From the NCBI RefSeq assembly GCF_046105845.1, contig NZ_CP151004.1: a stretch of 64,000 bases of DNA. One strand, given 5' to 3'. The position numbers and the translations under genes are program-made. A model generated the notes under the pieces. That model had not been told where the DNA came from, did not search any database, and worked only from the letters and a program-made list of their open reading frames with translations. Each line of letters starts with the position of its first letter. Within the stretch, counting starts at the first letter, position 1. Below, piece by piece: positions 39,969 to 55,962 of this stretch. Source of the DNA: Escherichia coli. Lineage in GTDB: Bacteria > Pseudomonadota > Gammaproteobacteria > Enterobacterales > Enterobacteriaceae.

Positions 39969-40261
39969 TATAAATTTCTCATTAAATCTGGATAAATAAA
40001 TTGACGGCGGCATCGGTAATTTGAGATTCGTTATCATTAAAAACGAACACAGAAAAAATAAATATAAATTTGGTGAATGTTTTTGACATGATTAAATCCA
40101 TTTGCTTTATTTTCTTCTGACATAATACGTTACTCCCTTTAATTATTAACGATATGTTTCGCATTTTTCTTGAAACCTGCCTGTAACAGAATGTTAATAA
40201 GACATGATTGTTGTGGCAGGATCTGCAATAATTAACAATTATCCACTTCACAGAGAATGCT

Positions 40262-40933
40262 ATGCAGTACCCGATTAACGAGATGTTCCAGACCCTGCAA
40301 GGTGAGGGTTACTTTACCGGCGTCCCCGCTATTTTTATTCGTTTACAGGGATGCCCGGTTGGCTGTGCCTGGTGCGACACCAAACACACCTGGGAAAAGC
40401 TTGAGGATCGGGAAGTCTCCCTTTTCAGCATTCTGGGTAAAACGAAAGAGAGTGATAAGTGGGGAGCAGCAAGCAGTGAAGACTTACTCGCAGTCATCGG
40501 TCGTCAGGGATACACCGCGCGTCACGTGGTGATTACGGGTGGTGAACCTTGTATTCATGACTTGATGCCACTAACTGACCTGCTCGAAAAGAACGGTTTT
40601 AGCTGCCAGATCGAAACCAGTGGTACTCATGAAGTACGCTGCACACCGAATACCTGGGTTACCGTATCGCCAAAGCTGAACATGCGCGGCGGCTATGAAG
40701 TGTTGTCACAGGCACTGGAGCGAGCCAACGAAATCAAGCATCCAGTGGGACGCGTACGTGATATTGAAGCACTGGATGAACTTTTGGCGACGCTGACCGA
40801 TGATAAACCGCGAGTCATTGCACTGCAGCCGATTAGCCAAAAGGATGATGCCACACGTTTGTGCATTGAAACTTGCATTGCGCGTAACTGGCGTTTGTCG
40901 ATGCAAACACATAAATATTTAAATATTGCCTGA
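40262..40933 (+). CDS. queE: 7-carboxy-7-deazaguanine synthase QueE (radical SAM)
   Basis: 223 aa; radical-SAM cysteine cluster RLQGCPVGCAWCDTKH. Confidence 0.9.
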   Translation: MQYPINEMFQTLQGEGYFTGVPAIFIRLQGCPVGCAWCDTKHTWEKLEDREVSLFSILGKTKESDKWGAASSEDLLAVIGRQGYTARHVVITGGEPCIHDLMPLTDLLEKNGFSCQIETSGTHEVRCTPNTWVTVSPKLNMRGGYEVLSQALERANEIKHPVGRVRDIEALDELLATLTDDKPRVIALQPISQKDDATRLCIETCIARNWRLSMQTHKYLNIA

Positions 40934-41029
40934 TTACACATTTATATGCGTTATAAATGGGTGGAACCTGTAAAGACTTCCACTCATTTATATTTTTTGT
41001 CGCCTCTGAAAACTCATCCATTTTGCCCA

Positions 41030-41272
41030 TTCTGGACTAATCATTGTCATTCTCTACAAATTCTGTAGCGTTAATTTTTCTCTGGGGTGAAAATTATTAC
41101 GTCGGAGTTTGGTAGATTTTAGTTTGTATAGAGTTATTTTAAATATTTACCTTTTCAATCAATGGATTAAGTGCTCTTTAACATAATAGATGTGTTGTTT
41201 GTGTGATACTGTAAAGTTGGTAGATTGTGACTGGCTTAAAAAATCATTAATTAATAATAGGTTATGTTTAGA
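41030..41272 (+). promoter_or_regulatory. CRISPR leader (AT-rich; promoter and integration-host signals)
   Basis: AT-rich sequence ending ...tggtagattgtgactggcttaaaaaatcattaattaataataggttatgtttaga immediately before repeat 1; the degenerate repeat is at the opposite end of the array. Confidence 0.75.
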
Positions 41273-42643
41273 GAGTTCCCCGCGCCAGCGGGGATAAACC
41301 GTTGTCCTGCTGAACCAAGTAAGCCACTGACAAGAGTTCCCCGCGCCAGCGGGGATAAACCGCATTATATCCTGTGCGTCGTTCATTTATTTACGAGTTC
41401 CCCGCGCCAGCGGGGATAAACCGGCCGCCGCATGGCAAAACAAACATCGGGGTACGAGTTCCCCGCGCCAGCGGGGATAAACCGGAACGGCGGCTATACG
41501 GATTCGACAGGTCAGCGAGTTCCCCGCGCCAGCGGGGATAAACCGGATTGAATGCAGATGGTTCAATGCTCGCATTCGAGTTCCCCGCGCCAGCGGGGAT
41601 AAACCGCCACGCGTGCTTTGAGTGGATGGTGTCGCTTGGAGTTCCCCGCGCCAGCGGGGATAAACCGATACATTATTAAGCGGGCAATTTTTCCAGTTTG
41701 AGTTCCCCGCGCCAGCGGGGATAAACCGAACGGCACGGCCTGCCGCCACGTCCCGCAGCTGAGTTCCCCGCGCCAGCGGGGATAAACCGGGGCCGTGTTT
41801 TCTAACGGATTCGCACATTGCGAGTTCCCCGCGCCAGCGGGGATAAACCGCAGCAGTTCAATACTGAAATCAACATGCCGATGAGTTCCCCGCGCCAGCG
41901 GGGATAAACCGCGCGGTGGGGTTTCATTCGCATCAATTCAAGGGAGTTCCCCGCGCCAGCGGGGATAAACCGGCGGTGAGTGAGAAAATCAGGACGGCTG
42001 CGAGGAGTTCCCCGCGCCAGCGGGGATAAACCGCGCCAAATATGCTGGTGGACTTCTACGCCGATGAGTTCCCCGCGCCAGCGGGGATAAACCGCTATCG
42101 ACGGTCAAGAAAATCCACCGGAAGAAGAGTTCCCCGCGCCAGCGGGGATAAACCGGCAGCAATATATTTGACATAATAGATAACCCGGAGTTCCCCGCGC
42201 CAGCGGGGATAAACCGACGCCAGGGGAGATATAACGCGCCTGTTATGGGAGTTCCCCGCGCCAGCGGGGATAAACCGGTCTTAACTAAAAGATGACCATT
42301 CAGTCGCAGGAGTTCCCCGCGCCAGCGGGGATAAACCGCGGCCCATAATATTAATATAATCCACATGAGGGAGTTCCCCGCGCCAGCGGGGATAAACCGC
42401 GCCGGAAATCATCGTTCTGTAATTGTCTAGCGAGTTCCCCGCGCCAGCGGGGATAAACCGCCCTGTTTGTTATTCCCATTATACGTATAAGAGAGTTCCC
42501 CGCGCCAGCGGGGATAAACCGCTTCTGGCTGGAGGTGGAGAAACGGAGGCAATGAGTTCCCCGCGTTAGCGGGGATAAACCGGATTTAGAGAGCCAGACG
42601 TTGGTCAGTTATTCGAGTTCCCCGCGTCAGCGGGGATAACCAT
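41273..42643 (+). CRISPR. Type I-E CRISPR array, 23 repeats / 22 spacers
   Basis: 29-bp repeat GAGTTCCCCGCGCCAGCGGGGATAAACCG recurs at exactly 61-bp period from 41273 to 42615; 32-bp unique spacers; repeat 22 has C>T (GCGTTAGCGGGG); terminal repeat degenerate (GCGTCAGCGGGGATAACCA). Confidence 0.97.
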
Positions 42644-42655
42644 TCAGGTATGTTC

Positions 42656-42681
42656 AGGCCGGGCAGTTTCCCGCCCGGCCT
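42656..42681. terminator. GC hairpin between array end and ygcE stop (possible bidirectional terminator)
   Basis: aggccgggcagtttcccgcccggcct perfect stem-loop; no clear U-tract, so terminator function is uncertain. Confidence 0.4.
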
Positions 42682-42688
42682 TCCTCAC

Positions 42689-44167
42689 TTACGCATTCGA
42701 CCAGCTCTGGATCGAATCTTCATTCCCCAATTCCCCATGCATCACTTCATACGATTTTTTCAGGATCACATCAGTGTGTTTGGTTAGGTCTTTGAAAATG
42801 CCTTTATTCATCGCGTCGTAGCGTTTGGCGTTGCTCTCAACAGGCATAAAGATATCTTTCACGCGAACCATTTTGTCGACAGCCGTTGCGTAATCCGGGT
42901 ATAGCCCCAGACCTACCGCCGTATTAATCGCTGCCCCCAGGCTTGCACAACCATTAATGGCGTTACGGCGTGCCGGAAGGTTGAACACGTCGGCAAAAAT
43001 CTGCATAAACAGATCGCTGTTCGAACCGCCGCCAGTAATGATCACATGCTTTGCAAAGTGATTCATTTCATTACACATATTGTCGTAATTGTTCTTCAGC
43101 GTCAGCGCCACGCTTTCCAGTATCGAACGATATATCCATGCGTAATCCATGCTGGAATCAAAGCCGATCATAATCCCGCGTTTGTACGGTTCCCACGGAT
43201 TGGTCAGCCAGTCCAGCACCGTCATCAGACCATTACAGCCAGGCGGCACACAAGACGCTTTTTTGTTGAGCAAATCTTCCGGTGAAAGATCCTGTGCTTT
43301 GGCATCCTGAATTAACGACTCGCCTAACATGTCGCGTAGCCAGCTCACCGTCCACATGCCTTTGCGGATACCGTAACCTTCATACAGCAAGGTTTGTGGA
43401 ATAGAAGACATAATCGGCCAGTACGCTACCGGATCTTTCGGCAGTGCTTTGCCGTTCATCATCAACGCGATGTAAGTGCCAAGAGAAATTACCGCAGTTT
43501 CATCATCCAGTAACCCGGCTCCCAGTGCTTCTACCGGTTTATCACTGGTGGTACAAACAACCGGCAGCCCAGCCGGGAAATGTGTAGCCAGCGCGGCTTG
43601 AGGAGTGATATGCCCAAGAACAGTGCCCGGCATTTGCACATCAAACAGCATATGACGGGGGATATTAAACTTCTCCATGACTGCGGCATCTTCACTCCAT
43701 GCCCAGGTCTTATAATCCACCGGCCACTGACCAAAATAGTTGGCGATATTGTCTTTAAACTCGCCGGTTAAGCGATGCGTCAGATAACCTGAAAAAGAGG
43801 TGACATATGCCACGTCAGGATTCGTATGTTCGTAAGGGCGTGTAACGCGTGCATCCTGCCAGCTAATCAACGGCGCAGCTGGCGTGCCATCGGCTTTCAA
43901 TAACGCACGGCAGCAACGGATGGATCCCAGACCAATACCGACAATATCTTCTTTATTTCCGGCAAACTGACTCATCAAATCGTGACCGGCAAAACATAAT
44001 GATGCCCATAAATCGTCGTCAGGATGTTCTGCGGTATCGGCATCTGGCGTGTGCATCGGCTGTAATAAGCCTTTGCCTTCGCAAACCACGTTACCTTCCA
44101 GATCGTACATCACCACTTTTGTGCTCTGACTTCCGCCATCAATCCCTATGATGTATTTTTTCGACAT
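42689..44167 (-). CDS. ygcE: FGGY-family carbohydrate kinase YgcE (substrate unknown)
   Basis: 492 aa MSKKYIIGIDGGSQSTKVVMYD; FGGY N- and C-terminal domains. Confidence 0.85.
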   Translation of the reverse strand: MSKKYIIGIDGGSQSTKVVMYDLEGNVVCEGKGLLQPMHTPDADTAEHPDDDLWASLCFAGHDLMSQFAGNKEDIVGIGLGSIRCCRALLKADGTPAAPLISWQDARVTRPYEHTNPDVAYVTSFSGYLTHRLTGEFKDNIANYFGQWPVDYKTWAWSEDAAVMEKFNIPRHMLFDVQMPGTVLGHITPQAALATHFPAGLPVVCTTSDKPVEALGAGLLDDETAVISLGTYIALMMNGKALPKDPVAYWPIMSSIPQTLLYEGYGIRKGMWTVSWLRDMLGESLIQDAKAQDLSPEDLLNKKASCVPPGCNGLMTVLDWLTNPWEPYKRGIMIGFDSSMDYAWIYRSILESVALTLKNNYDNMCNEMNHFAKHVIITGGGSNSDLFMQIFADVFNLPARRNAINGCASLGAAINTAVGLGLYPDYATAVDKMVRVKDIFMPVESNAKRYDAMNKGIFKDLTKHTDVILKKSYEVMHGELGNEDSIQSWSNA

Positions 44168-44193
44168 GATTTTTCTCCTGTAATTTTCTGGAC

Positions 44194-45471
44194 TTACTTG
44201 CTGCTAGCCATAGCAGGGGCGCTATCAGCAGTACGAATTTTTTGGAACAGCAAAAAGGTAAAGACGATCACCATGGCAAGCGCCGCCATGCCCATCAGCC
44301 ACATATTGCGGTAGGCTTCTGCAGCGGGCAGGGTGTCTTGCCAGTAGCCGATAATCGGGTAAACGAAGACATCCGGCAGGAATCCAATCACCGAACAAAT
44401 ACCTACCGTGGTGCCCATAATGTAAGACGGTGTTCTCGCTTCGCCAGGGCAGGCCCAGTACAGCCCGCGTGAGGCGTAACAGGTGAATCCCAGCAGTAAA
44501 ATCAGGCCAATCCCCATCGCGACCGATTGCGGGTTAGAGTTCGTGACGAGCAGGGCAGTTAACGCCAGCAAGCCGAGTACGGAAAGGATTTGGATCACGC
44601 GGGTAGGGGATTTCACTTTGCTGTAGGTGGTGATAATGCCACCAAGTGGGCCGCACAGCGCGCGGAAGATTTTGTTGATCACAATCCCCATGTAGCTCGC
44701 CGCCACCAGCGACATGCCGTACATTTCGGTCAGATAGTTGGTGGAGTAACTCAGAATGGCGTAGATGGTGAAGACACCAAAAATCACCATGCTGCAATAC
44801 CAGGTGGTTCTGATGCGCAAAACGGCCAGGATGTCGCTAAGCTGGAATGAATGTTTTTCTTCGTTATTGGTATTGCGCAGGTTGTTGTTATCGCTGACAA
44901 AAAACCAACACAAAATGCCCAGCAGAATGTAAACCACACTATAGATAATAATGACCGTTTTCAGGCTGGCGCTGTCATCCGGTGCAAAGCGAGAAAAGAC
45001 CCACATGGTAAACACCGCCAGCGACATTACACCGACGCCGCGCAGCCCTTCCATCCAGCCCATAATTTTCCCTTGCTCGCTATGATCGCCCAGCAACGAT
45101 GCGGCTTTAATCGACACCGACCACAGCATTAAAATCGTCGTTATCGCAAAGGCGACCTGAATACAGAGCATTACCCACAGCGGTGGATATGTTGCCATTA
45201 ACAGACCCAGTAATCCGGTAATGATCATCGCGGAAGTAATCATTTTGCGGTGTGAAAATTTATCGGCAATAACGCCGCTGGGGGCATAAAGAATAATAGC
45301 CGCAATACCAAAGGTACTCATTATTAAACCTATCTCGGTATTGCTGAATCCCATAAATTTCGCCATGGGAATTTGATAAATATAACGTAAATAAGCCAGG
45401 TCGAAACTAACGCCGCCGCTAAAACTAATTATCGCGAGGGTTATCCAACGGCGATATGAGTTGTGTTGCAT
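44194..45471 (-). CDS. yqcE: MFS transporter YqcE
   Basis: 425 aa, about 12 TM segments. Confidence 0.85.
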   Translation of the reverse strand: MQHNSYRRWITLAIISFSGGVSFDLAYLRYIYQIPMAKFMGFSNTEIGLIMSTFGIAAIILYAPSGVIADKFSHRKMITSAMIITGLLGLLMATYPPLWVMLCIQVAFAITTILMLWSVSIKAASLLGDHSEQGKIMGWMEGLRGVGVMSLAVFTMWVFSRFAPDDSASLKTVIIIYSVVYILLGILCWFFVSDNNNLRNTNNEEKHSFQLSDILAVLRIRTTWYCSMVIFGVFTIYAILSYSTNYLTEMYGMSLVAASYMGIVINKIFRALCGPLGGIITTYSKVKSPTRVIQILSVLGLLALTALLVTNSNPQSVAMGIGLILLLGFTCYASRGLYWACPGEARTPSYIMGTTVGICSVIGFLPDVFVYPIIGYWQDTLPAAEAYRNMWLMGMAALAMVIVFTFLLFQKIRTADSAPAMASSK

Positions 45472-45789
45472 ATCGTATTCCCATTTGTAATAGACAAAAA
45501 AAAGAGAAAAGTAAGCCGCCCTTTCAGGTGGATTACTTTTCTCAGGTCTCTAGTAATTGCAATAAGAAATAACATGGAAAGCAGTGGTGTTGTGTGAGAG
45601 TAATCACGCTTCTGCTTTTTAAAATTATTTGACAATTCGAATATCACACTGTGATTACGATCACATTAGCGATTATGCCCTTATGATAAAAATTATCTCC
45701 AGTTACCAGAGATAATGAGAAAGGTAACTTCCCTCTCGCGGGGGAAGTTACCTTTCTTTTTTTTTGCCTTACGGAAATTGGAGCTAACT

Positions 45790-46575
45790 ATGTCAATCGA
45801 ATCTCTCAATGCGTTCTCAATGGATTTTTTCTCCCTGAAAGGTAAAACCGCAATTGTTACCGGCGGGAATAGCGGTTTAGGCCAGGCATTTGCCATGGCG
45901 CTGGCCAAAGCAGGCGCAAATATCTTTATTCCAAGCTTCGTTAAAGATAACGGAGAAACAAAGGAAATGATTGAAAAACAGGGTGTTGAGGTGGACTTCA
46001 TGCAGGTGGATATCACCGCAGAAGGCGCGCCGCAGAAGATAATCGCCGCCTGTTGCGAACGTTTCGGTACCGTCGATATTCTGATTAACAATGCCGGTAT
46101 TTGTAAGCTGAATAAGGTGCTGGACTTCGGTCGTGCCGACTGGGACCCGATGATTGATGTGAACCTGACCGCCGCATTCGAGTTAAGCTATGAAGCGGCA
46201 AAAATTATGATCCCGCAGAAAAGCGGTAAAATCATTAATATCTGTTCATTGTTCTCTTACTTAGGTGGACAATGGTCACCTGCTTATTCTGCCACTAAAC
46301 ATGCTCTTGCCGGATTCACCAAAGCCTATTGCGATGAATTAGGTCAATATAATATTCAGGTGAATGGTATTGCTCCGGGATATTACGCTACCGATATCAC
46401 TCTGGCGACCCGTAGTAATCCAGAAACTAACCAGCGCGTTCTTGATCATATTCCGGCAAACCGTTGGGGCGATACTCAGGATTTAATGGGCGCAGCCGTA
46501 TTCCTCGCAAGTCCGGCATCGAATTATGTCAACGGACATTTATTAGTGGTTGATGGCGGTTATTTAGTGCGCTAA
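45790..46575 (+). CDS. ygcW: short-chain dehydrogenase/reductase YgcW (KduD/gluconate 5-dehydrogenase-like)
   Basis: ORF 45715 trimmed to MSIESLNAFS start; SDR cofactor motif TGGNSGLGQA and catalytic YSATK. Confidence 0.8.
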   Translation: MSIESLNAFSMDFFSLKGKTAIVTGGNSGLGQAFAMALAKAGANIFIPSFVKDNGETKEMIEKQGVEVDFMQVDITAEGAPQKIIAACCERFGTVDILINNAGICKLNKVLDFGRADWDPMIDVNLTAAFELSYEAAKIMIPQKSGKIINICSLFSYLGGQWSPAYSATKHALAGFTKAYCDELGQYNIQVNGIAPGYYATDITLATRSNPETNQRVLDHIPANRWGDTQDLMGAAVFLASPASNYVNGHLLVVDGGYLVR

Positions 46576-46644
46576 TCCATAACGGTGGTTTCTGTTTTCT
46601 CTTATTAATGATTATTCCATTTTTATTATCAGGAAGGAATTACT

Positions 46645-48099
46645 ATGTCTTTATCTCGCGCAGCGATTGTCGACCAGCTAAAGGAAATTGTTGGTGCAGA
46701 TCGCGTAATTACCGATGAAACAGTATTAAAGAAAAACAGTATTGACCGTTTTCGTAAATTTCCGGATATTCATGGTATTTATACTTTGCCGATTCCGGCA
46801 GCGGTCGTAAAACTCGGTTCCACAGAACAAGTCTCCCGTGTGCTGAATTTTATGAATGCGCACAAAATTAACGGTGTGCCGCGTACCGGCGCTTCCGCCA
46901 CTGAAGGTGGGCTGGAAACCGTTGTGGAAAACTCGGTGGTGCTCGACGGCTCCGCCATGAATCAAATCATTAATATTGATATTGAGAATATGCAGGCCAC
47001 GGCGCAATGTGGTGTTCCGCTGGAAGTGCTGGAAAACGCGTTGCGTGAAAAAGGTTACACCACGGGGCATTCTCCGCAGTCAAAGCCGCTGGCGCAGATG
47101 GGCGGCCTGGTAGCAACCCGCAGTATCGGGCAGTTCTCCACACTCTACGGCGCAATCGAAGATATGGTCGTTGGTCTGGAAGCGGTACTGGCAGATGGCA
47201 CCGTAACACGCATTAAAAACGTACCACGCCGCGCGGCAGGCCCGGACATTCGCCACATCATCATCGGCAACGAAGGTGCATTGTGCTATATCACTGAAGT
47301 AACAGTGAAAATCTTTAAGTTCACCCCGGAAAACAACCTCTTCTACGGCTATATCCTGGAAGACATGAAAACCGGCTTCAACATCCTGCGTGAAATCATG
47401 GTGGAAGGGTATCGTCCGTCGATCGCTCGTTTGTATGACGCTGAAGATGGCACCCAACACTTCACCCATTTTGCCGATGGTAAATGTGTGCTGATCTTTA
47501 TGGCTGAAGGTAACCCTCGCATTGCGAAGGCGACAGGCGAAGGGATTGCGGAAATCGTGGCACGTTACCCGCAATGCCAGCGAGTGGACAGCAAGCTGAT
47601 CGAAACCTGGTTTAATCACCTGAACTGGGGGCCGGATAAAGTGGCCGCTGAACGTGTGCAGATCCTCAAAACCGGCAACATGGGCTTTACCACCGAAGTG
47701 TCCGGCTGCTGGAGCTGCATCCACGAAATCTACGAAAGCGTTATTAACCGTATTCGTACCGAGTTCCCGCACGCCGACGACATCACCATGCTGGGCGGTC
47801 ACTCCTCTCACAGCTACCAGAACGGCACCAACATGTACTTCGTTTACGACTACAACGTTGTTGACTGTAAGCCGGAAGAGGAAATCGACAAGTACCACAA
47901 TCCGCTCAACAAAATCATCTGCGAAGAAACCATTCGCCTCGGCGGTTCGATGGTGCACCACCACGGTATTGGTAAACATCGCGTTCACTGGAGCAAACTG
48001 GAACACGGCAGCGCGTGGACGTTGCTGGAAGGTCTGAAAAAACAGTTCGATCCTAACGGCATTATGAATACGGGTACTATCTATCCGATTGAAAAATAA
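46645..48099 (+). CDS. ygcU: FAD-linked oxidase YgcU (GlcD / alkyl-DHAP synthase-like)
   Basis: 484 aa; FAD-binding PCMH-type domain. Confidence 0.85.
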   Translation: MSLSRAAIVDQLKEIVGADRVITDETVLKKNSIDRFRKFPDIHGIYTLPIPAAVVKLGSTEQVSRVLNFMNAHKINGVPRTGASATEGGLETVVENSVVLDGSAMNQIINIDIENMQATAQCGVPLEVLENALREKGYTTGHSPQSKPLAQMGGLVATRSIGQFSTLYGAIEDMVVGLEAVLADGTVTRIKNVPRRAAGPDIRHIIIGNEGALCYITEVTVKIFKFTPENNLFYGYILEDMKTGFNILREIMVEGYRPSIARLYDAEDGTQHFTHFADGKCVLIFMAEGNPRIAKATGEGIAEIVARYPQCQRVDSKLIETWFNHLNWGPDKVAAERVQILKTGNMGFTTEVSGCWSCIHEIYESVINRIRTEFPHADDITMLGGHSSHSYQNGTNMYFVYDYNVVDCKPEEEIDKYHNPLNKIICEETIRLGGSMVHHHGIGKHRVHWSKLEHGSAWTLLEGLKKQFDPNGIMNTGTIYPIEK

Positions 48100-48191
48100 T
48101 ATGTCAGGCAGCGTTCCGCTATGAGGGGCGTTGCCTTTTCGGCTTCTCAGGCGAGAAGCCGTTCTTATTACCGGACAATGAAGGGGTAAAG

Positions 48192-49529
48192 ATGAACACT
48201 TCACCGGTGCGAATGGATGATTTACCGCTTAACCGTTTTCACTGTCGAATTGCTGCGCTCACTTTCGGCGCGCACCTGACCGACGGTTATGTTCTCGGCG
48301 TCATTGGTTACGCCATTATTCAGCTTACACCCGCCATGCAACTGACGCCGTTTATGGCGGGAATGATTGGCGGCTCAGCACTCCTTGGTTTGTTTCTTGG
48401 CAGCCTGGTTCTGGGCTGGATCTCCGACCATATTGGGCGACAAAAAATCTTCACCTTCAGCTTTTTGCTGATTACGCTTGCTTCGTTTTTACAATTTTTT
48501 GCCACCACGCCAGAGCATCTTATTGGACTGCGCATTTTGATTGGCATTGGTCTGGGAGGCGATTACTCAGTCGGTCACACCTTGCTGGCTGAATTTTCCC
48601 CGCGCCGCCATCGCGGTGTTTTGCTGGGCGCATTCAGCGTAGTGTGGACGGTGGGCTATGTGCTGGCAAGCATTGCCGGACATCACTTTATTAGCGAAAG
48701 CCCGGAGGCCTGGCGCTGGCTGCTGGCATCGGCAGCTCTGCCCGCATTGTTGATTACGTTATTACGCTGGGGAACGCCAGAATCGCCACGCTGGCTACTG
48801 CGCCAGGGGCGTTTTGCAGAAGCTCACGCTATCGTGCATCGCTATTTTGGTCCCCATGTTTTACTGGGCGATGAAGTGGCAACGGCGACCCATAAACACA
48901 TCAAAACCTTGTTCTCTTCGCGCTACTGGCGGCGCACGGCGTTTAACAGCGTCTTCTTTGTCTGCCTCGTAATCCCATGGTTTGTGATTTATACCTGGCT
49001 GCCAACTATCGCCCAGACTATTGGTCTGGAAGATGCGTTGACTGCCAGCCTGATGCTTAATGCGTTGTTAATTGTGGGTGCGCTGCTGGGATTAGTTCTG
49101 ACGCACCTGCTGGCACATCGCAAATTTTTGCTGGGAAGTTTTTTGCTGCTGGCGGCAACGCTGGCAGTGATGGCTTGTTTGCCTTCCGGCAGTTCATTAA
49201 CGCTGCTGCTTTTTGTTCTCTTCAGCACCACCATTTCGGCAGTCAGTAATCTGGTGGGCATTTTGCCTGCGGAAAGTTTTCCTACTGACATTCGCTCGCT
49301 GGGCGTCGGTTTTGCCACCGCCATGAGTCGACTTGGCGCGGCGGTAAGTACTGGCCTGCTGCCGTGGGTGCTGGCGCAGTGGGGAATGCAAGTCACCTTA
49401 TTGCTCCTGGCGGCAGTGTTGTTGGTTGGTTTTGTTGTGACCTGGCTATGGGCACCAGAAACCAAAGCACTCTCGCTGGTGGCGGCGGGAAATGTAGGAG
49501 GTGCGAATGAACATTCTGTTAGCGTTTAA
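48192..49529 (+). CDS. ygcS: MFS sugar-type transporter YgcS
   Basis: 445 aa, 12 TM, sugar-porter-like motifs (GRQKIF, PESPRWL). Confidence 0.85.
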   Translation: MNTSPVRMDDLPLNRFHCRIAALTFGAHLTDGYVLGVIGYAIIQLTPAMQLTPFMAGMIGGSALLGLFLGSLVLGWISDHIGRQKIFTFSFLLITLASFLQFFATTPEHLIGLRILIGIGLGGDYSVGHTLLAEFSPRRHRGVLLGAFSVVWTVGYVLASIAGHHFISESPEAWRWLLASAALPALLITLLRWGTPESPRWLLRQGRFAEAHAIVHRYFGPHVLLGDEVATATHKHIKTLFSSRYWRRTAFNSVFFVCLVIPWFVIYTWLPTIAQTIGLEDALTASLMLNALLIVGALLGLVLTHLLAHRKFLLGSFLLLAATLAVMACLPSGSSLTLLLFVLFSTTISAVSNLVGILPAESFPTDIRSLGVGFATAMSRLGAAVSTGLLPWVLAQWGMQVTLLLLAAVLLVGFVVTWLWAPETKALSLVAAGNVGGANEHSVSV

Positions 49530-50286
49530 AGCCGAACCGGATGCCGGAATGCTGGCGGAAAAAGAGTGGCAGGCGGCGGCTCAGGGTAATAGCGGACCGG
49601 ATGTTTCGCTTCTGCGAAGTTTACTCGGTGCTGATGAACAGGCTGCCGCCGCGCTGCTGTTGGCGCAGAGAAAAAACGGTACGTCGATGTCTTTAACCGC
49701 GTTGAGCATGGGGGATGAACGGGCGTTGCACTGGCTGCGCTATCTCATGGCCCTTGGGTTTGAGGAAGCTGTATTGCTGGAGACAGCGGCAGATCTGCGC
49801 TTTGCGCCGGAATTTGTCGCTCGCCATATTGCCGAATGGCAGCGTCAGAATCCGCTGGATCTGATAATTACCGGCTGCCAAAGCAGCGAAGGGCAGAATG
49901 GGCAAACGCCATTTTTGCTGGCGGAAATGCTGGGCTGGCCCTGCTTCACCCAGGTGGAGCGTTTCACTCTCGACGCGCCGTTTATCACCCTCGAACAGCG
50001 TACTGAACATGGGCTGCGCTGTTGCCGGGTTCGCTTGCCTGCGGTGATTGCCGTGCGCCAGTGCGGTGAAGTGGCCTTGCCAGTACCGGGAATGCGCCAG
50101 CGAATGGCGGCGGGGAAAGCAGAAATTATCCGTAAAACTGTTGCTGCCGAATTGCCAGCGATGCAGTGTCTGCAACTGGCAAGAGCAGAGCAACGACGCG
50201 GAGCGAGGCTGATTGATGGGCAAACGGTAGCAGAAAAAGCGCAAAAGCTATGGCAGGACTATTTACGCCAAAGGATGCGGCCATGA
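49507..50286 (+). CDS. ygcR: electron transfer flavoprotein beta-subunit-like YgcR (FixA-like)
   Basis: Start MNILLAFKAEPD; ETF-beta fold; overlaps ygcS 3' end and ygcQ start. Confidence 0.8.
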   Translation: MNILLAFKAEPDAGMLAEKEWQAAAQGNSGPDVSLLRSLLGADEQAAAALLLAQRKNGTSMSLTALSMGDERALHWLRYLMALGFEEAVLLETAADLRFAPEFVARHIAEWQRQNPLDLIITGCQSSEGQNGQTPFLLAEMLGWPCFTQVERFTLDAPFITLEQRTEHGLRCCRVRLPAVIAVRQCGEVALPVPGMRQRMAAGKAEIIRKTVAAELPAMQCLQLARAEQRRGARLIDGQTVAEKAQKLWQDYLRQRMRP

Positions 50287-51143
50287 ATATCGCAATTGTG
50301 ACAATAAATCAGGAGAATGCCGCAATAGCGAGCTGGCTGGCGGCGCAGGATTTCAGCGGTTGTACCCTGGCGCACTGGCAGATTGAACCTCAGCCCGTAG
50401 TGGCGGAACAGGTGCTGGATGCGCTGGTGGAACAGTGGCAGCGAACGCCTGCGGACGTTGTTCTCTTTCCGCCGGGAACGTTTGGCGATGAACTGTCGAC
50501 CCGGCTGGCCTGGCGTTTACATGGTGCAAGCATCTGCCAGGTGACTTCGTTAGATATTCCAACCGTAAGCGTGCGCAAATCCCACTGGGGAAATGCGCTA
50601 ACGGCGACGCTGCAAACAGAAAAACGCCCGCTATGCCTTTCCCTGGCGCGTCAGGCGGGAGCAGAGAAAAACGCCACGTTGCCCTCTGGTATGCAGCAAC
50701 TGAATATTGTCCCGGGTGCGCTTCCCGACTGGCTGGTTAGCACAGAGGATCTGAAAAATGTTACCCGCGACTCATTAGCTGAAGCCAGACGGGTGCTGGT
50801 GGTGGGGCAGGGCGGAGAGGCAGATAACCAGGAAATCGCTATGCTGGCAGAAAAGCTGGGAGCCGAAGTGGGCTACAGTCGGGCGCGAGTGATGAACGGT
50901 GGCGTTGATGCTGAAAAAGTGATTGGTATTTCCGGACATTTGCTGGCACCTGAGGTGTGTATTGTTGTTGGCGCTTCCGGCGCAGCAGCGTTAATGGCGG
51001 GCGTACGCAATAGCAAGTTTGTGGTGGCGATTAATCATGACGCCAGCGCGGCGGTATTTTCACAGGCAGATGTTGGCGTGGTTGATGACTGGAAAGCGGT
51101 GCTGGAGGCACTGGTGACAACCATTCACGCAGATTGCCAATAA
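50283..51143 (+). CDS. ygcQ: electron transfer flavoprotein alpha-subunit-like YgcQ (FixB-like)
   Basis: ORF 50250 trimmed to MNIAIVTINQ; C-terminal ETF-alpha FAD-binding region; ATGA overlap with ygcR stop. Confidence 0.8.
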   Translation: MNIAIVTINQENAAIASWLAAQDFSGCTLAHWQIEPQPVVAEQVLDALVEQWQRTPADVVLFPPGTFGDELSTRLAWRLHGASICQVTSLDIPTVSVRKSHWGNALTATLQTEKRPLCLSLARQAGAEKNATLPSGMQQLNIVPGALPDWLVSTEDLKNVTRDSLAEARRVLVVGQGGEADNQEIAMLAEKLGAEVGYSRARVMNGGVDAEKVIGISGHLLAPEVCIVVGASGAAALMAGVRNSKFVVAINHDASAAVFSQADVGVVDDWKAVLEALVTTIHADCQ

Positions 51144-51147
51144 CGTG

Positions 51148-51253
51148 CTGCCGGATGATCCTGCCTACGGTTCTGGGCTGGGGACTTGTAAGCCTGATAA
51201 GACGCGTCAAGCGTCGTATCAGGCGCTGAATGTCGGATGTGGCGTGCAGCCTA
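51148..51253. repeat. BIME (tandem REP units) between convergent ygcQ and ygcP
   Basis: tgccggatgatcctgcctac...gcctgataagacgcgtcaagcgtcgtatcaggc...gtcggatgtggcgtgcagcctac: several REP-type palindromes. Confidence 0.6.
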
Positions 51254-51289
51254 CAAAGCACATAAATTCAACTCGTTACGAGTATCCCG

Positions 51290-51865
51290 TCAAAGCAATT
51301 TTTTCGCTAACGTCCAGACCCCGGTATTCGTGGTGGAAAGCGCCACAACACCCGCGTTAATCGCATTACGCGCATCTTCTTCATCGCACACCAGCCCGCC
51401 GGCAATCAGCGGTTGGCGGATTTTCTCCGTCACCCAGCCCAGCACTTTAGGCATACAGCCTGGCAGGATCTCAATACAATCCGGATTCGATTGCGCAACT
51501 TGCTTATCAATGTTGTGAAACGAAATTGAATCAACAATAAACAGGCGATGAATACAGAAAAAACCTTCCGCTCTTGCCGCTTTCAACATTGAGGCTTTGG
51601 TACTGATAATGCCGTCCGCCTCAGTCACCAGTTTCAAAAACTGAATCACCACTTCTTTATTTGACGCGCCTTCCAGCAAATCAACATGAATAAAAGCATA
51701 TTTTCCGGCATTTTTAATCTTTTTAACGATTTGACTAATGGTGCAGATATTGCCGTACAACACGGAAATAAACTGGCATTCAGAGTCGATTGCCAGTTGC
51801 AGGCTGGCATTATCTTTAACGGCAGCAATCACCGGATTCTGGCGGAGCAGGTGTAAGAGGGGCAT
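51290..51865 (-). CDS. ygcP: GlpP-like glycerol-3-phosphate-responsive antiterminator family protein YgcP
   Basis: 191 aa MPLLHLLRQNPVIAAVKDNASLQ; GlpP/G3P-antiterminator fold. Confidence 0.8.
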   Translation of the reverse strand: MPLLHLLRQNPVIAAVKDNASLQLAIDSECQFISVLYGNICTISQIVKKIKNAGKYAFIHVDLLEGASNKEVVIQFLKLVTEADGIISTKASMLKAARAEGFFCIHRLFIVDSISFHNIDKQVAQSNPDCIEILPGCMPKVLGWVTEKIRQPLIAGGLVCDEEDARNAINAGVVALSTTNTGVWTLAKKLL

Positions 51866-51881
51866 AAATTATCCTTATTAT

Positions 51882-52142
51882 TTATCCAAAACGGTAGGTG
51901 ATGCCGAATCCGGAAGGCGGATAGCGCCACTGTTGTAGTGTTGATTCGTCGCACAGCAAACGGCAGGTGCCACACTCCAGGCAGCCGCGATAATCAACGC
52001 GTAAGTCACCTTCCGGTGTGAGCGAAAAAAGACCAGCCGGACAAGCGTTAATCAACCGTTGTACCGTCTGGCGCTCAACGGAGTCAGCCGGAACAATGTG
52101 CGGCGCATCGGCAACGCGCCAGAGATTACGGGCTACAGACAT
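51882..52142 (-). CDS. ygcO: ferredoxin-like protein YgcO (FixX-like)
   Basis: ORF trimmed to MSVARNLW (86 aa); Cys motif CLECGTCRLLC; overlaps ygcN 3' end. Confidence 0.75.
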   Translation of the reverse strand: MSVARNLWRVADAPHIVPADSVERQTVQRLINACPAGLFSLTPEGDLRVDYRGCLECGTCRLLCDESTLQQWRYPPSGFGITYRFG

Positions 52143-53404
52143 CGCAGACTCCTGATAACATCGCCCGCCAGATGCCACAGGCCGTGACGACGTAAATGAC
52201 GCCAGAGCAACTGGCGCAGCGGCGGAACAGGTTTATCACCCTGATCCCATAAATCACGGGAAATATCCTGCATTAACGCAGGCCACGCCCGATACCAGCC
52301 AGGGCGTTGCAAAAGCGCCGGAACATGCTGATAACGTTGTAGAACATCCCATAGCAGGCTGCGCTCGACGTTGTGATGATAAAGCGCAAACAGATTTTGC
52401 GGCTCGCGGTGCTGGCAGGCGCTTATCAGCGTTTGTGCCGCCGCCTGCGCGCCAGTTAGCGCCATATCCATGCCGCGCACGGAAATTCCGGTATTGACGC
52501 AACTGCGCAACGCATCGCCCACCAGCAGCCAGCCGTTACCGGCGTATTGCACCGGCATACTGTGCAAGCCACCTTCTGGCACCAGATGCGCACCATACTC
52601 CAGTGATTCCGTGTTTTTGATAAGCGGGCGCACTGCCGGATGCGTTTTAAAGCGAGCCAGCAGCTCGCTTGCCGGAACACGACTTTGCGTAAGGGAAGAG
52701 AGCGGGCAAACAATCCCTAACGAGAGCGTTTGTTGATTAGTATAAAGAAATGCGCCGCCGGGTAAGTCATCACAGATTCCGCCGCTGAACAGCAACGCTG
52801 CGCCTTCGTTATTCTCCAGATGAAAACGTTCTTCAATAGCGGATGTTTCCAGCGACAGCACTTCTTTGATCCCCAACGCCATCGCTTCGCCAGCAGGACG
52901 AGTCACTAACCCGTGACGCTCAGCCAGGACGCTGTTGGCACCTTCTGCCAGCACCACATAACGGGCGCGGAGAATATCGTCACCACAAATGACACCACAC
53001 ACCATGCCGTTTTCTTCATACAGCGCATCCACCGTCGCACCGGGGATGCATTCGACACCTTCTTTTTCGGCTTCGGCAACCAGCCACGGATCGAACCGTG
53101 CACGTAATACACTCCAGGATTCACCGCCGGGCTGTAAGCTGGAAAACGTCGTTGCGCCATCCGGCGTTAACAGGGAAAGGCTTTCGTGAGTGATGCGTCG
53201 TTCAAGAGGCGCGGTCAGATGAAATTGTGGGAGGAGTTCCGCGAGCGCCTGGGTATATAAACGCCCGCCGGAAAGATTTTTGCTGCCGGGGATTTCAGCG
53301 CGTTCCAGTAACAAAACGGATAAACCTGCCCGCGCGCAGCGTAAAGCACAAGCGGTGCCTGCTATACCCGCACCAATAATAATAATGTCGCAGTCGTCTT
53401 CCAT
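52133..53404 (-). CDS. ygcN: FAD-dependent oxidoreductase YgcN (FixC / ETF-quinone oxidoreductase-like)
   Basis: ORF trimmed to MEDDCDIIIIGAGIAGTACA (GxGxxG FAD fold), 423 aa. Confidence 0.8.
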   Translation of the reverse strand: MEDDCDIIIIGAGIAGTACALRCARAGLSVLLLERAEIPGSKNLSGGRLYTQALAELLPQFHLTAPLERRITHESLSLLTPDGATTFSSLQPGGESWSVLRARFDPWLVAEAEKEGVECIPGATVDALYEENGMVCGVICGDDILRARYVVLAEGANSVLAERHGLVTRPAGEAMALGIKEVLSLETSAIEERFHLENNEGAALLFSGGICDDLPGGAFLYTNQQTLSLGIVCPLSSLTQSRVPASELLARFKTHPAVRPLIKNTESLEYGAHLVPEGGLHSMPVQYAGNGWLLVGDALRSCVNTGISVRGMDMALTGAQAAAQTLISACQHREPQNLFALYHHNVERSLLWDVLQRYQHVPALLQRPGWYRAWPALMQDISRDLWDQGDKPVPPLRQLLWRHLRRHGLWHLAGDVIRSLRCL

Positions 53405-53481
53405 GTCGTGCCCCATATATCCAGAGCGCAACACCCTAACATAGCGTTACTTAAGGGAAATTGACCGCCGACACACTCTTA

Positions 53482-53847
53482 TCATTCGCCGCGATAGATG
53501 CAACCTGCGGTGCAGGTTTCTTTCACCATAACCGCACTTAACAGCGGAACAACCGGTTTAACCTGATCCCAAATCCATTTTGCTAAAACCTCGCTGGTCG
53601 GGTTTTCCAGACCTGGAATATCATTGAGATAATGGTGATCGAGGCGCTCATAAGTTGGCTTAAACGCCGCTTTCAGTTCAGCGAAATCGATAATCCAGCC
53701 CGTATGCGGATCGACTTCCCCGGTAATTTCCAGTCGCACCATAAAGGAATGCCCGTGCAGGCGACCACATTTATGCCCTTCCGGGACGTGTGGTAAGCGG
53801 TGAGCGGCTTCGAAGGTGAAATCTTTAAATAACGTGGTGGACATCAT
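53482..53847 (-). CDS. queD: 6-carboxy-5,6,7,8-tetrahydropterin synthase QueD
   Basis: ORF trimmed to [35 protein letters not shown] (121 aa); Zn-binding His/Cys of the PTPS fold. Confidence 0.85.
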
Positions 53848-53931
53848 AATTTCTCTACAGGACGATAAAACCGCCGTAGAGTACCGGAAAGGCTGTTTTT
53901 TCGCATTATCTAAAACGACTTTGTTGCGCAA

Positions 53932-54162
53932 AATCGCTGATTTATCTTAATGATTGGCTAAATTCATTTGTTTTTCATTGGGTTGGTTAATCTGTTTTGT
54001 TGTTAAAGACTATTGCTAAAACAGGTTAGTCGATTTGGTTATTAGTTATCGCTATCCCGTCTTTAATCCACACCGTTCACCCCGTTAACCTTACCTTCTC
54101 TTCTGTTTTATGGGCGCTGACAGGGCGCAGAAACAGCTTTGCTTACTGGAACATAACGACGC
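53932..54162 (+). promoter_or_regulatory. cysJIH promoter region (CysB-dependent in E. coli)
   Basis: AT-rich 230 bp upstream of cysJ; specific CysB sites not resolved by eye. Confidence 0.45.
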
Positions 54163-55962
54163 ATGACGACACAGGTCCCACCTTCCGCGTTGCTTCCGTT
54201 GAACCCGGAGCAACTGGCACGCCTTCAGGCGGCCACGACCGATTTAACTCCTACCCAGCTTGCCTGGGTTTCTGGCTATTTCTGGGGCGTGCTCAACCAG
54301 CAGCCTGCTGCGCTTGCAGCGACGCCAGCGCCCGCCGCAGAAATGCCGGATATAACTATTATCTCCGCTTCGCAAACCGGCAATGCGCGCCGGGTTGCTG
54401 AAGCATTACGCGATGATTTATTAGCGGCAAAACTGAACGTTAAGCTGGTGAACGCGGGCGACTATAAATTCAAACAAATCGCCAGCGAAAAACTGCTCAT
54501 CGTGGTGACGTCAACGCAAGGGGAAGGGGAACCGCCGGAAGAAGCCGTCGCGCTGCATAAGTTCCTGTTCTCCAAAAAAGCGCCAAAGCTGGAAAACACT
54601 GCATTTGCCGTGTTTAGCCTCGGCGATAGCTCTTATGAATTTTTCTGCCAGTCCGGGAAAGATTTTGACAGCAAGCTGGCGGAACTGGGCGGTGAACGCC
54701 TGCTCGACCGTGTCGATGCCGACGTTGAATACCAGGCTGCTGCCATCGAGTGGCGCGCCCGCGTGGTTGATGCGCTTAAATCGCGTGCGCCTGTCGCGGC
54801 ACCTTCGCAATCCGTCGCTACTGGCGCGGTAAATGAAATCCACACCAGCCCGTACAGCAAAGACGCGCCGCTGGTGGCGAGCCTCTCTGTTAACCAGAAA
54901 ATTACCGGGCGTAACTCTGAAAAAGACGTTCGCCATATCGAAATTGACTTAGGTGACTCTGGCCTGCGTTACCAGCCGGGTGACGCGCTGGGCGTCTGGT
55001 ATCAGAACGATCCGGCACTGGTGAAAGAACTTGTCGAACTGCTGTGGCTGAAAGGCGATGAAACTGTCACCGTTGACGGCAAAACGCTGACCCTGAGCGA
55101 AGCGCTACAGTGGCACTTTGAACTCACCGTCAACACCGCGAATATTGTTGAGAACTACGCCACGCTTACCCGCAGCGAAACGCTGCTGCCGCTGGTGGGC
55201 GATAAAGCCAAGTTACAGCATTACGCCGTGACCACGCCGATTGTTGACATGGTGCGTTTCTCTCCGGCGCAACTGGATGCCGAAGCGCTGATTAACCTGC
55301 TGCGCCCGCTGACCCCGCGCCTGTATTCCATCGCCTCCTCGCAGGCGGAAGTCGAGAACGAAGTACACGTTACCGTTGGTGTGGTGCGTTACGACGTGGA
55401 AGGCCGCGCCCGTGCCGGTGGTGCCTCCAGTTTCCTCGCGGACCGTGTGGAAGAAGAGGGCGAAGTCCGCGTCTTTATCGAACATAACGATAACTTCCGC
55501 CTGCCAGCCAATCCGGAAACGTCGGTGATTATGATTGGCCCAGGCACCGGCATCGCGCCGTTCCGCGCCTTTATGCAGCAACGCGCCGCCGACGAAGCGT
55601 CGGGGAAAAACTGGCTGTTCTTTGGCAACCCGCACTTTACGGAAGATTTCCTCTACCAGGTGGAATGGCAGCGCTACGTCAAAGAGGGCGTGCTGACGCG
55701 TATCGATCTTGCCTGGTCGCGCGATCAAAAAGAAAAAATTTACGTACAAGACAAACTGCGCGAACAGGGCGCGGAGCTGTGGCGCTGGATCAATGACGGT
55801 GCCCACATTTATGTCTGCGGCGACGCTAATCGCATGGCGAAAGACGTTGAGCAGGCACTTCTGGAAGTGATTGCCGAATTTGGTGGCATGGACACCGAAG
55901 CGGCGGATGAATTTTTAAGTGAGCTGCGCGTAGAGCGCCGTTATCAGCGAGATGTCTACTAA
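54163..55962 (+). CDS. cysJ: sulfite reductase [NADPH] flavoprotein alpha-component CysJ
   Basis: 599 aa; flavodoxin-like FMN domain plus FAD/NADPH ferredoxin-reductase domain. Confidence 0.95.

Follow-up and report, generated by a model that had tools for sequence, protein, structure and literature searches.

GlpP-type antitermination is known from the glycerol genes of Bacillus: in Bacillus subtilis, GlpP together with glycerol-3-phosphate activates glpD, glpFK and glpTQ by disrupting a terminator in the 5' untranslated region (UTR) (PMC9604022). Here we describe a locus of Escherichia coli that encodes a protein of the same family, YgcP, and that can also be compared with the eukaryotic alkyl-dihydroxyacetone-phosphate synthase (ADPS, or AGPS), with LctBCD and the D-2-hydroxyglutarate dehydrogenase/electron-transfer flavoprotein (ETF) systems, and with fixABCX and ydiQRST of E. 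coli itself. This locus, the ygc cluster, occupies positions 42689-53404 of a 64,000-nt stretch of contig NZ_CP151004.1 (the whole stretch is referred to as the window, and all coordinates are window positions). A preliminary description made from the sequence alone had placed a ten-gene cluster here, between a CRISPR array and queD, and the placement is correct: the interval is filled, at exactly these borders, by ten intact open reading frames (ORFs), ygcE, yqcE, ygcW, ygcU, ygcS, ygcR, ygcQ, ygcP, ygcO and ygcN; the RefSeq annotation of the best megablast match carries the identical ten gene names, order and products; and in that genome the cluster is flanked by the CRISPR array and queE at one end and by queD and cysJ at the other end. 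The cluster is present in 5417 of 5426 complete E. coli genomes, chromosomal every time, and at least 80% of it is covered in 5060 of them (megablast).

The reading that we favour, with a probability of roughly 0.55, is that these genes form one inducible catabolic regulon that acts on a glycerol-like quaternary amine and is controlled at two levels, by CRP and, at two leader RNAs, by YgcP. The genes have long been known as y-genes; new here are the leader switches, the link to quaternary amines and an ADPS signature in the flavoenzyme YgcU. Ten genes of E. coli K-12 that have been functionless on paper for decades would in this way gain a concrete regulatory circuit. As the preliminary description had stated, no substrate has been assigned in the searchable literature: we found no paper that characterises the cluster or assigns it a substrate, and none that links FGGY kinases to betaine/choline/carnitine transporters (BCCT) or to MttB, only predictions of CRP sites, a list of the Crp regulon and incidental mentions, such as a 1.69-fold induction of ygcU by D-serine without a phenotype.

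Two leader RNAs and a GlpP-family regulator

The 318-bp intergenic region between yqcE and ygcW holds two copies of a leader RNA, one for each divergent operon and each behind a CRP-like site. Leader 1 (45691-45767, plus strand), which ends 23 nt before the ygcW ATG, was found by a terminator scan and by a covariance model (81 bits); it consists of a ribonucleic antiterminator (RAT)-like 5' box, AGUUACC (45701-45707), the loop AGAGAUAAUGAGAAAG, a terminator stem (45717-45758) and U9 (45759-45767), and the terminator scan describes the terminator as 19 pairs followed by a T-run of nine. Leader 2 (45496-45568, minus strand) stands directly upstream of yqcE and lies outside the training set of the model, which was built from leaders upstream of YgcW homologues; it was recovered with 63 bits (E 6.6e-10). 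Its RAT-like 5' box, CAAUUACU (45559-45552), is complementary to the terminator arm and is followed by the purine-rich loop AGAGACCUGAGAAA, a terminator stem (45543-45504) and U8 (45503-45496). The consensus of the leaders reads AGUUACY-AGAG-N(4-6)-GAGAAARGUAACUUCC, then the 3' arm, then U8. A search of the leaders for antiterminator hairpins had been recommended as a check on the preliminary description, and such hairpins are present twice, with covariation.

The upstream box AGUUAC is complementary to GUAACU, which belongs to the terminator's 5' arm, and both sides co-vary: the pair becomes AAUUAC/GUAAUU in Sporomusa and two Bacillota metagenome-assembled genomes (MAGs), GGUCGC/GCGACC in Saccharopolyspora and GUUGCC/GGCGAC in one enterobacterial MAG, and the last antiterminator pair, C-G vs U-A, separates Enterobacteriaceae from the other lineages. 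When 28 leaders were aligned with MAFFT, 96.4% of the 7-bp antiterminator helix was paired, with compensatory changes in five of its seven pairs; in 500 shuffles these figures were never reached, and a partner displaced by 1-3 columns lowered the pairing to 19-56%. Compensatory changes occur in 11 pairs of the 18-bp terminator in the same alignment. Since the antiterminator helix is absent from the structure of the covariance model, its pairing on leaders aligned by that model is a fair test, and it is kept in 93% of cells on 60 model-aligned leaders and in 91% of cells on 35 leaders that are not upstream of ygcW. The terminators have folding energies of about -28 kcal/mol (ygcW leader) and about -20 kcal/mol (yqcE leader), the antiterminator hairpins alone of -6.7 and -1.4 kcal/mol, respectively; the terminators are far stronger, so that termination is expected by default and a protein would be required to hold the alternative fold.

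For the comparison between species, one genome per species was scanned with an alignment of YgcU homologues, which gave 80 loci, and the ten window proteins were then run against these by tblastn; YgcP is encoded in 56 of the sampled loci. The leader element was matched (E <1e-4) in 37 of 38 loci with YgcP, spread over four phyla, vs 3 of 20 without it. Among these three, the genome of L036 appears to encode YgcP on another contig, and the other two are contigs of <10 kb, beyond whose ends YgcP may lie. Upstream of YgcW homologues, a terminator of conserved sequence is found where YgcP is encoded and not in the Desulfobacterota loci without YgcP. Conservation across Enterobacteriaceae extends to the two leaders and to the two CRP sites. 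When 68 covariance-model matches were mapped to their downstream genes, 33 stood before YgcW operons, 21 before YqcE-YgcE operons, 6 before BCCT genes, 4 before YgcU, 1 before an operon for an Opu ABC system and 1 before an operon of MttB, a PanB-like protein and Opu; the remaining 2 (L082 and L086, Saccharopolyspora) precede ORFs that ORF calling had left unlabelled. The BCCT, Opu and MttB cases belong to lineages outside Enterobacterales. The leader also precedes YqcE homologues in 54 metagenome contigs, and the MttB and Opu cases were seen again in metagenome contigs.

An Rfam cmscan of 40000-56000 with E up to 1 gave no match at either leader, only a REP-like partial match and CRISPR-repeat noise; the leader switches are previously undescribed and the element is missing from Rfam. 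The leaders could be used directly as reporters in screens for the inducer. A small hairpin at 45694-45716 was considered as an anti-antiterminator and dropped, as it is not conserved in other Enterobacteriaceae. A scan of metagenomes for the leader pattern gave no new regulon member; most matches were yqcE leaders of the E. coli type, and some 14 matches by pattern alone were discarded, having no terminator and failing the covariance model. Among the latter are marine contigs (L123, L129, L131, L151, L152, L157 and L161) in which the exact 20-base leader pattern is followed by a conserved ORF of 182 aa; these contigs have neither a terminator nor a covariance-model match, so the pattern has probably arisen by chance in some abundant genome or phage of the sea.

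YgcP is encoded at 51290-51865 on the minus strand, as the last gene of ygcN-ygcO-ygcP. Its residues 11-184 match PDB 3kts, a Listeria 'glycerol uptake operon antiterminator' (phmmer, E 8.5e-28), its homologues carry PF04309 (G3P_antiterm/GlpP), and the ratio of non-synonymous to synonymous substitution rates (dN/dS; pairwise, against four relatives) is 0.01-0.04 for ygcP. The match to 3kts, the two covarying leaders and the co-occurrence of YgcP with the element support the earlier suggestion that an RNA-binding antiterminator would control the cluster. A protein search for canonical GlpP loci returned, among the 120 matches listed, only members of the YgcP subfamily, and the published 5' UTR of B. 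subtilis glpD, an experimentally established GlpP target, was used instead (Table S4 of PMC9604022). Folded here, it has the plan ACGGUCC (GGUCC box), a loop UGAGAUGAGGAGA, GACCACAGC (GACC arm) and a terminator. The ygc leader resembles the glp leaders of B. subtilis in that it follows the promoter directly and in that an upstream box, set off by a purine-rich loop of the GAGA type, is able to pair with the 5' arm of its terminator. The regulators belong to the same family (PF04309), catabolite control is likewise added on top of antitermination, and by analogy the inducer of ygc is expected to be the product of the FGGY kinase of the pathway. Unlike the glp leaders, the ygc leader has a consensus of its own, without an Rfam match; catabolite control goes through CRP rather than CcpA; the regulon has a much broader taxonomic range, which takes in Gram-negative bacteria beside Bacillota and Actinomycetota; and its targets, in place of glpF, glpK, glpD and glpT, are a short-chain dehydrogenase/reductase (SDR), an ADPS-like flavoenzyme, an ETF and transporters of the major facilitator superfamily (MFS), BCCT and Opu types. 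Every sequence-level mark of membership that was looked for is present, namely a PF04309 protein, a leader terminator and an overlapping alternative structure, and the ygc control is therefore best described as a putative new member of the GlpP-type system. GlpP-type antitermination would thereby extend to Proteobacteria and Actinomycetota.

The two CRP-like sites were read from the sequence. Site 1, TGTGA-GAGTAA-TCACG (45593-45608), is centred at 45600.5, and site 2, TGTGA-TTACGA-TCACA (45650-45665), a perfect consensus, at 45657.5. With the transcription starts placed where the leader box begins, near 45559 (minus strand) for yqcE and near 45699 (plus strand) for ygcW, the centres of sites 1 and 2 are each 41.5 nt from the respective start, a spacing consistent with class II CRP promoters. 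Both divergent promoters have a TGn extended -10 at a suitable distance; that of ygcW reads TGaTAAAAA (45684-45692), and a TGcTAAAAA box is conserved in other Enterobacteriaceae. The yqcE/ygcW region is among the top CRP-site predictions made by PhyloScan (PMC1794230), and yqcE-ygcE is listed as Crp-activated (PMC8085971).

The circuit that we propose would run as follows. CRP-cAMP would activate the two divergent promoters of the yqcE/ygcW intergenic region, and the leader of each transcript would fold by default into a strong intrinsic terminator. YgcP, supplied by the separate ygcN-ygcO-ygcP operon, would bind the phosphorylated product of YgcE; in its liganded form it would bind the purine-rich loop and hold the weak antiterminator (AGUUACY/GUAACU), which consumes the 5' arm of the terminator, and RNA polymerase could then read into yqcE-ygcE and ygcW-ygcU-ygcS-ygcR-ygcQ.

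Conserved core and substrate class

Synteny of all ten genes is kept in about 35 enterobacterial species loci, and YgcW, YgcU and YgcE occur together in nearly all of the roughly 80 loci with enough flank, in four phyla, the bearers being Enterobacterales, Vibrionaceae, Desulfobacterota, Bacillota and Actinomycetota. Identity to the E. coli proteins is 65-94% for YgcU and 63-97% for YgcW across the sampled loci, in which ygcW is always beside ygcU. YgcW (SDR), YgcU (flavoenzyme) and YgcE (FGGY kinase) make up the invariant core of the cluster. YgcN, YgcO and YgcS are confined to Enterobacterales, and the core occurs without a linked ETF in Pantoea, Erwinia, Izhakiella, Serratia proteamaculans, halophilic bacilli and Saccharopolyspora. 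The genes had been read from the start as a catabolic pathway, a reading that a lack of co-conservation would have refuted; the synteny and the shared core show that they are co-conserved and support it.

The dN/dS values are 0.01-0.07 for ygcE, yqcE, ygcW, ygcU, ygcS and ygcP (0.02-0.04 for ygcE and 0.01-0.04 for ygcW) and 0.06-0.35 for ygcR, ygcQ, ygcO and ygcN; being at most 0.35 throughout, they indicate purifying selection on all ten genes. They bear on the view that the cluster is a cryptic remnant without a function in E. coli today, which would agree with a literature that reports neither phenotype nor substrate, with the approximately 7% of complete genomes that have <80% of the region and with the fast divergence of the ETF and FixCX genes. 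However, all ten ORFs are intact, the ratios are low for the core, the transporters and YgcP as well as for the ETF and FixCX genes, and the leaders and CRP sites are conserved across Enterobacteriaceae, so that we consider a remnant highly improbable.

The top identity of the cluster to any of the 5426 complete E. coli genomes is only 98.4%, and dS of its genes against E. coli strain E69 (L010) is 0.2-0.6, which means either that the lineage is poorly represented among complete genomes or that the region is unusually diverse. Two records with non-enterobacterial labels, a Planctomycetota MAG (L008) and Chryseobacterium sp. 18061 (L031), have a ygcU that is 99% and 89% identical, respectively, to that of E. 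coli; L031 holds most of the enterobacterial cluster, with ygcE not detected there. Both are most likely the result of assembly or binning contamination.

The family assignments given in the preliminary description hold at family level in NCBIfam and PDB searches, and no equivalog cut-off of NCBIfam is reached by any of the ten proteins. YgcE (42689-44167, minus strand), the FGGY-family kinase and second gene of the yqcE-ygcE operon, scores best against XylB (143 bits, cut-off 380), then LsrK (140, cut-off 528) and GlpK (102, cut-off 590), and its nearest solved structures are LsrK and glycerol kinases. The cut-offs for AraB, FucK, RhaB and GntK are likewise not reached. FGGY kinases phosphorylate a primary hydroxyl beside a CHOH or C=O group. 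A role in autoinducer-2 (AI-2) metabolism of the Lsr type was considered, since LsrK is the nearest solved kinase, and rejected, there being no other lsr gene or logic in the locus. YgcW (45790-46575, plus strand), an SDR oxidoreductase related to KduD and gluconate-5-dehydrogenase, stays below both KduD cut-offs (350.1 vs 369 bits for NF005390 and 275.5 vs 338.9 for TIGR01832). YqcE (44194-45471, minus strand), an MFS transporter encoded by the first gene after leader 2 and the proposed importer, has the D-galactonate transporter group as its top NCBIfam match and found no solved relative in the PDB search. The second MFS transporter, YgcS (48192-49529, plus strand), is related to organic cation/carnitine carriers: among solved structures it matches OCTN2, OCT1 and OCT2 best, and sugar porters, XylE and GlcP included, come after them.

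To characterise the surroundings of the core, the ORFs of all loci were clustered and recurrent neighbours annotated. No sugar transporter lies next to the core in the loci from outside Enterobacterales. Instead, these non-enterobacterial loci have BCCT carriers (14 loci), OpuA/OpuC-type ABC systems (6-7 loci) and non-pyrrolysine MttB-family methyltransferases (10 loci); at least one of the three is found in 27 of 40, and most of the others are short contigs. Comparison with solved structures places the Opu binding protein closest to EgtUC, choline-binding, OpuCC and ProX proteins, and one MttB closest to the glycine betaine methyltransferase.

These neighbours weigh on the substrate. The preliminary description had favoured an ordinary pathway for a sugar alcohol or sugar acid (a tetritol, a pentitol or a keto-deoxy acid), with MFS uptake, phosphorylation by the FGGY kinase, oxidation by the SDR and FAD enzymes and the ETF as electron sink. 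FGGY kinases and KduD-like SDRs do normally act on sugars and sugar acids, YgcW reaches 350 bits against the KduD model, the best family match of YqcE is the D-galactonate group, the cluster is under CRP control and its only carriers in E. coli are of the MFS. Yet none of the enzymes reaches an equivalog cut-off, and the clustered locus ORFs contain no aldolase, isomerase or dehydratase that accompanies the core conservedly across loci. The orthologous cores, moreover, are tied to betaine/choline/carnitine-type transporters and MttB by adjacency and, in several cases, by the same leader, YgcS resembles OCTN2 and OCT1 more closely than XylE or GlcP, and YgcU has the ADPS signature described below rather than the metal site of a 2-hydroxy-acid dehydrogenase. 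The sugar substrate is thus left unsupported, and we regard it as unlikely. The glycerol-like quaternary amine moves the search for the substrate from sugars to hydroxylated quaternary amines, compounds of interest for osmoprotection, for marine carbon and nitrogen cycling and as precursors of trimethylamine in the gut. The glycerol-like part is suggested by the homology of YgcP to GlpP, by the FGGY kinase, by the ADPS-likeness of YgcU and by a GlpD-type glycerol-3-phosphate dehydrogenase that stands, in the Desulfobacterota locus L007, beside a paralogous kinase and YgcU-like pair; together they point to a glycerol-phosphate-like intermediate.

The flavoenzyme, its probable electron-transfer partners and the proposed chemistry

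YgcU (46645-48099, plus strand) is a VAO-type flavoenzyme (FAD_binding_4/FAD-oxidase_C) of 484 aa, whose best PDB match is ADPS (E 4.9e-40); NCBIfam puts it beside GlcD-type flavoenzymes. In the alignment its R262, Y398 and H438-H440 coincide with the catalytic Arg, Tyr and His-His-His loop of ADPS, which we take to be Arg419, Tyr578 and His615-617 in guinea-pig numbering. The PDB point mutants 4bc7 and 4bca depart from the wild type exactly at the ADPS Arg and Tyr positions, and glycolate oxidase has E-H where YgcU and ADPS have HHH. All five signature residues are invariant in 13 sequences from four phyla, across which YgcU identity is >65%. The signature is newly recognised here and suggests that YgcU is a bacterial relative of ADPS, which makes it a target for enzymology. 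Unlike ADPS (584-658 aa), YgcU does not have the N-terminal 140-210 residues or so, the alignment beginning at ADPS residues 138-215; in ADPS this region forms the lipid tunnel. It also differs in the company of its gene, which includes genes for a kinase, an SDR and an ETF, and in its link to transporters of small polar solutes, and net redox turnover is likely for it. A detectable relative of YgcU in the PDB search is LctD (7qh2). Like YgcU, the FAD_binding_4/FAD-oxidase_C enzymes of LctBCD and of the D-2-hydroxyglutarate dehydrogenase/ETF systems are encoded directly beside ETF beta and alpha genes; unlike them, YgcU has HHH in place of the E-H metal/substrate site, and its substrate would be expected to be a phosphate ester rather than a 2-hydroxy acid.

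The ETF beta-like and alpha-like subunits are encoded by ygcR (49507-50286, plus strand) and ygcQ (50283-51143, plus strand), the latter a distinct subfamily. YgcR has a best NCBIfam ETF-beta score of 45 bits and YgcQ at most 78 bits, vs cut-offs of 200-600, and PF01012 and PF00766 are found on their homologues, a relationship at family level only. A PF01012 gene follows ygcU in most loci (dN/dS of ygcR 0.10-0.34); ETF beta and alpha genes follow ygcU in anaerobes and most enterics and are missing in aerobic lineages. In YgcQ the motif GASGAAALMAG replaces the canonical ETF-alpha FAD signature GISGAIQH, and Q-H is also lost, across the sampled phyla, in the YgcU-linked ETF alphas wherever the motif was found (50 of 68 sequences). 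A second, ferredoxin-fused ETF alpha with the motif found, in L004 only, reads GVSGSIQFQAG, in which Q is kept and H lost. Judged by this motif, the YgcU-linked ETF alphas are a separate lineage, itself a target for enzymology.

Electrons could pass on from the ETF through YgcN (52133-53404, minus strand), a FixC/YdiS-like FAD oxidoreductase with 379 bits against PRK10015 (cut-off 466) and 362 against FixC (cut-off 610), and YgcO (51882-52142, minus strand), a FixX-like ferredoxin with 84 bits against FixX (cut-off 166) and CxxCxxCxxxC at C54-C64. In the sampled loci YgcN is always accompanied by ETF genes, and we propose that it is an ETF:quinone oxidoreductase. The four genes ygcR, ygcQ, ygcO and ygcN evolve 5-10 times faster than the core, and the electron-transfer module is the fast-evolving, dispensable part of the cluster. 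A dedicated ETF chain, as first described, does exist; what changes is its standing, for it is the least conserved part, with YgcN and YgcO limited to Enterobacterales and the ETF missing in aerobes. No characterised precedent for the combination of an FGGY kinase, an SDR, an ADPS-like flavoenzyme and a dedicated ETF was found in the libraries searched.

In composition the module resembles fixABCX and ydiQRST, with ETF beta and alpha, a FixC-like flavoprotein and a FixX-like ferredoxin, and the ygc proteins are paralogues, not equivalogs, of the Fix proteins. Like fixABCX, which goes with caiTABCDE, ygc is tied to quaternary-amine metabolism, here through orthologous loci. It differs in that all four Ygc proteins stay below the NCBIfam cut-offs, YgcQ being without Q-H, in that the partner of the ETF is a VAO-type flavoprotein and not an acyl-CoA dehydrogenase, in that there are no CoA-handling genes and in that the FixCX-like part is limited to Enterobacterales. 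E. coli fixABCX is linked to carnitine reduction, and the ETF and FixCX proteins of ygc might similarly feed electrons in, YgcU reducing or reductively cleaving the substrate on an anaerobic route. The paralogy of YgcN/O and YgcR/Q with FixCX and FixAB would suit such a route, as would the occurrence of the ETF in anaerobes and facultative anaerobes and its absence from aerobes, and the altered FAD motif of the YgcU-linked ETF alpha could shift the redox potential. On the other hand, aerobes keep YgcU without a linked ETF, which fits oxygen or a general ETF as the acceptor of an oxidation; CoA-transferase, CoA-ligase or acyl-CoA dehydrogenase genes as in the cai system are not found; and strict anaerobes are without FixCX and have instead a GlcD/LctD-like enzyme and a second, ferredoxin-fused ETF. 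That the ETF is tightly tied to YgcU in anaerobes and absent in aerobes argues for net oxidation, and a reductive role seems quite unlikely.

In 19 loci, of anaerobic and marine versions, a second GlcD/LctD-like flavoenzyme is added, and some of these also have a second ETF with a longer alpha subunit of 388-398 aa (15425-16591 in L004 and 15597-16793 in L066). The long ETF alpha of L004 gives a faint ferredoxin-domain match, and the set resembles the bifurcating lactate dehydrogenase/ETF complex.

For the catabolic regulon that we favour, the chemistry from uptake to YgcU and the electron path are inferred. The substrate would be a small compound that resembles glycerol at one end and most probably bears a trimethylammonium group; it would enter through the MFS carriers in E. 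coli and through BCCT or Opu systems elsewhere. YgcE would phosphorylate its primary hydroxyl, the product being both inducer and intermediate, and YgcW would carry out an NAD-dependent oxidation of the secondary alcohol to a ketone of the dihydroxyacetone-phosphate type. By the enolisation and flavin-N5 chemistry of ADPS, YgcU could then yield triose phosphate and an amine-bearing fragment. E. coli may excrete the onium-bearing fragment, which other bacteria may demethylate through MttB or oxidise, and the electrons would leave via the ETF YgcR/Q where oxygen is not the acceptor and, in Enterobacterales, go onward via YgcN/O to quinone.

Several points weigh against this scheme. The chemistry of ADPS is redox-neutral and by itself gives no explanation for a dedicated ETF, and YgcU may be a plain dehydrogenase. 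The subtype of YgcE varies by lineage, with 43-59% identity. The E. coli cluster is without BCCT, Opu and MttB genes, so that the quaternary amine is suggested for it by the orthology of YgcU and YgcW (65-75% identity) and by a weak OCT-likeness of YgcS. Accessory genes fail to converge on one product: Pantoea-type operons encode a Fae-like protein, an aldo-keto reductase and an aldehyde dehydrogenase, Bacillota MAGs PanB-like and proline-racemase-like proteins, and Alkalihalobacillus an aspartase-like lyase, an alcohol dehydrogenase and an aldehyde dehydrogenase. The data do not single out any natural compound. There are hints of aldehyde and one-carbon intermediates among the accessory genes; as these are suggestive and do not converge, we commit ourselves to a class of substrate only, glycerol-like with a quaternary ammonium group.

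A more specific proposal, which we offer tentatively and think rather doubtful, is that the ygc core is a widespread and hitherto undescribed pathway that detaches a glycerol unit from a trimethylammonium compound through a covalent flavin chemistry otherwise described only in the ether-lipid synthesis of eukaryotes, its phosphorylated intermediate being sensed by a GlpP-type riboregulator that crosses phyla. Candidate substrates would be a glyceryl ether or phosphodiester such as glycerophosphocholine, the deacylated head group of a betaine lipid, or 3-(trimethylammonio)propane-1,2-diol. If true, choline, betaine or trimethylamine precursors in gut and ocean would have a previously unrecognised microbial source.

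A leader-controlled operon YqcE-YgcE-YgcS-Fae-like-aldo-keto reductase-aldehyde dehydrogenase is found in L037, L042, L049, L051 and L052 (Pantoea/Erwinia/Serratia type) and in L053 (SAR324); the Fae-like ORF was not called in the operon of L049. The Fae-like protein is above the NCBIfam cut-off for the formaldehyde-activating-enzyme domain (135 vs 118 bits), although tetrahydromethanopterin would not be expected in these hosts.

Transcription units and intergenic features

The arrangement of the genes suggests three transcription units, yqcE-ygcE (minus strand), ygcW-ygcU-ygcS-ygcR-ygcQ (plus strand) and ygcN-ygcO-ygcP (minus strand). In the plus-strand unit ygcS and ygcR overlap by 23 nt and ygcR and ygcQ by 4 nt; the ygcN-ygcO-ygcP operon is deduced from a 10-nt overlap and a 16-nt gap. 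The mechanically called ygcW ORF begins at an ATG at 45715, inside the terminator hairpin of the leader, and the annotated start at 45790, with GGAG 8 nt upstream, is credible as the true one. Between the queD stop and the ygcN start lies a gap of 77 nt (53405-53481) without a leader element, a terminator or a clear promoter; transcription of ygcN-ygcO-ygcP, and hence of the regulator gene, may come by readthrough from queD or from a promoter within queD. The gap between ygcU and ygcS contains, at 48140-48161, a GC-rich 9-bp hairpin, CGGCTTCTC-AGGC-GAGAAGCCG, followed by TTCTTATT, which could be an internal attenuator or a processing site dividing ygcW-ygcU from ygcS-ygcR-ygcQ. Finally, the gap between ygcQ and ygcP holds, at 51192-51224, a palindromic sequence, GCCTGATAAGACGCGTCAAGCGTCGTATCAGGC, that resembles repetitive extragenic palindromes (REP/BIME) and gives a sub-threshold, partial Rfam match to naRNA4 (28 bits, E 0.12).

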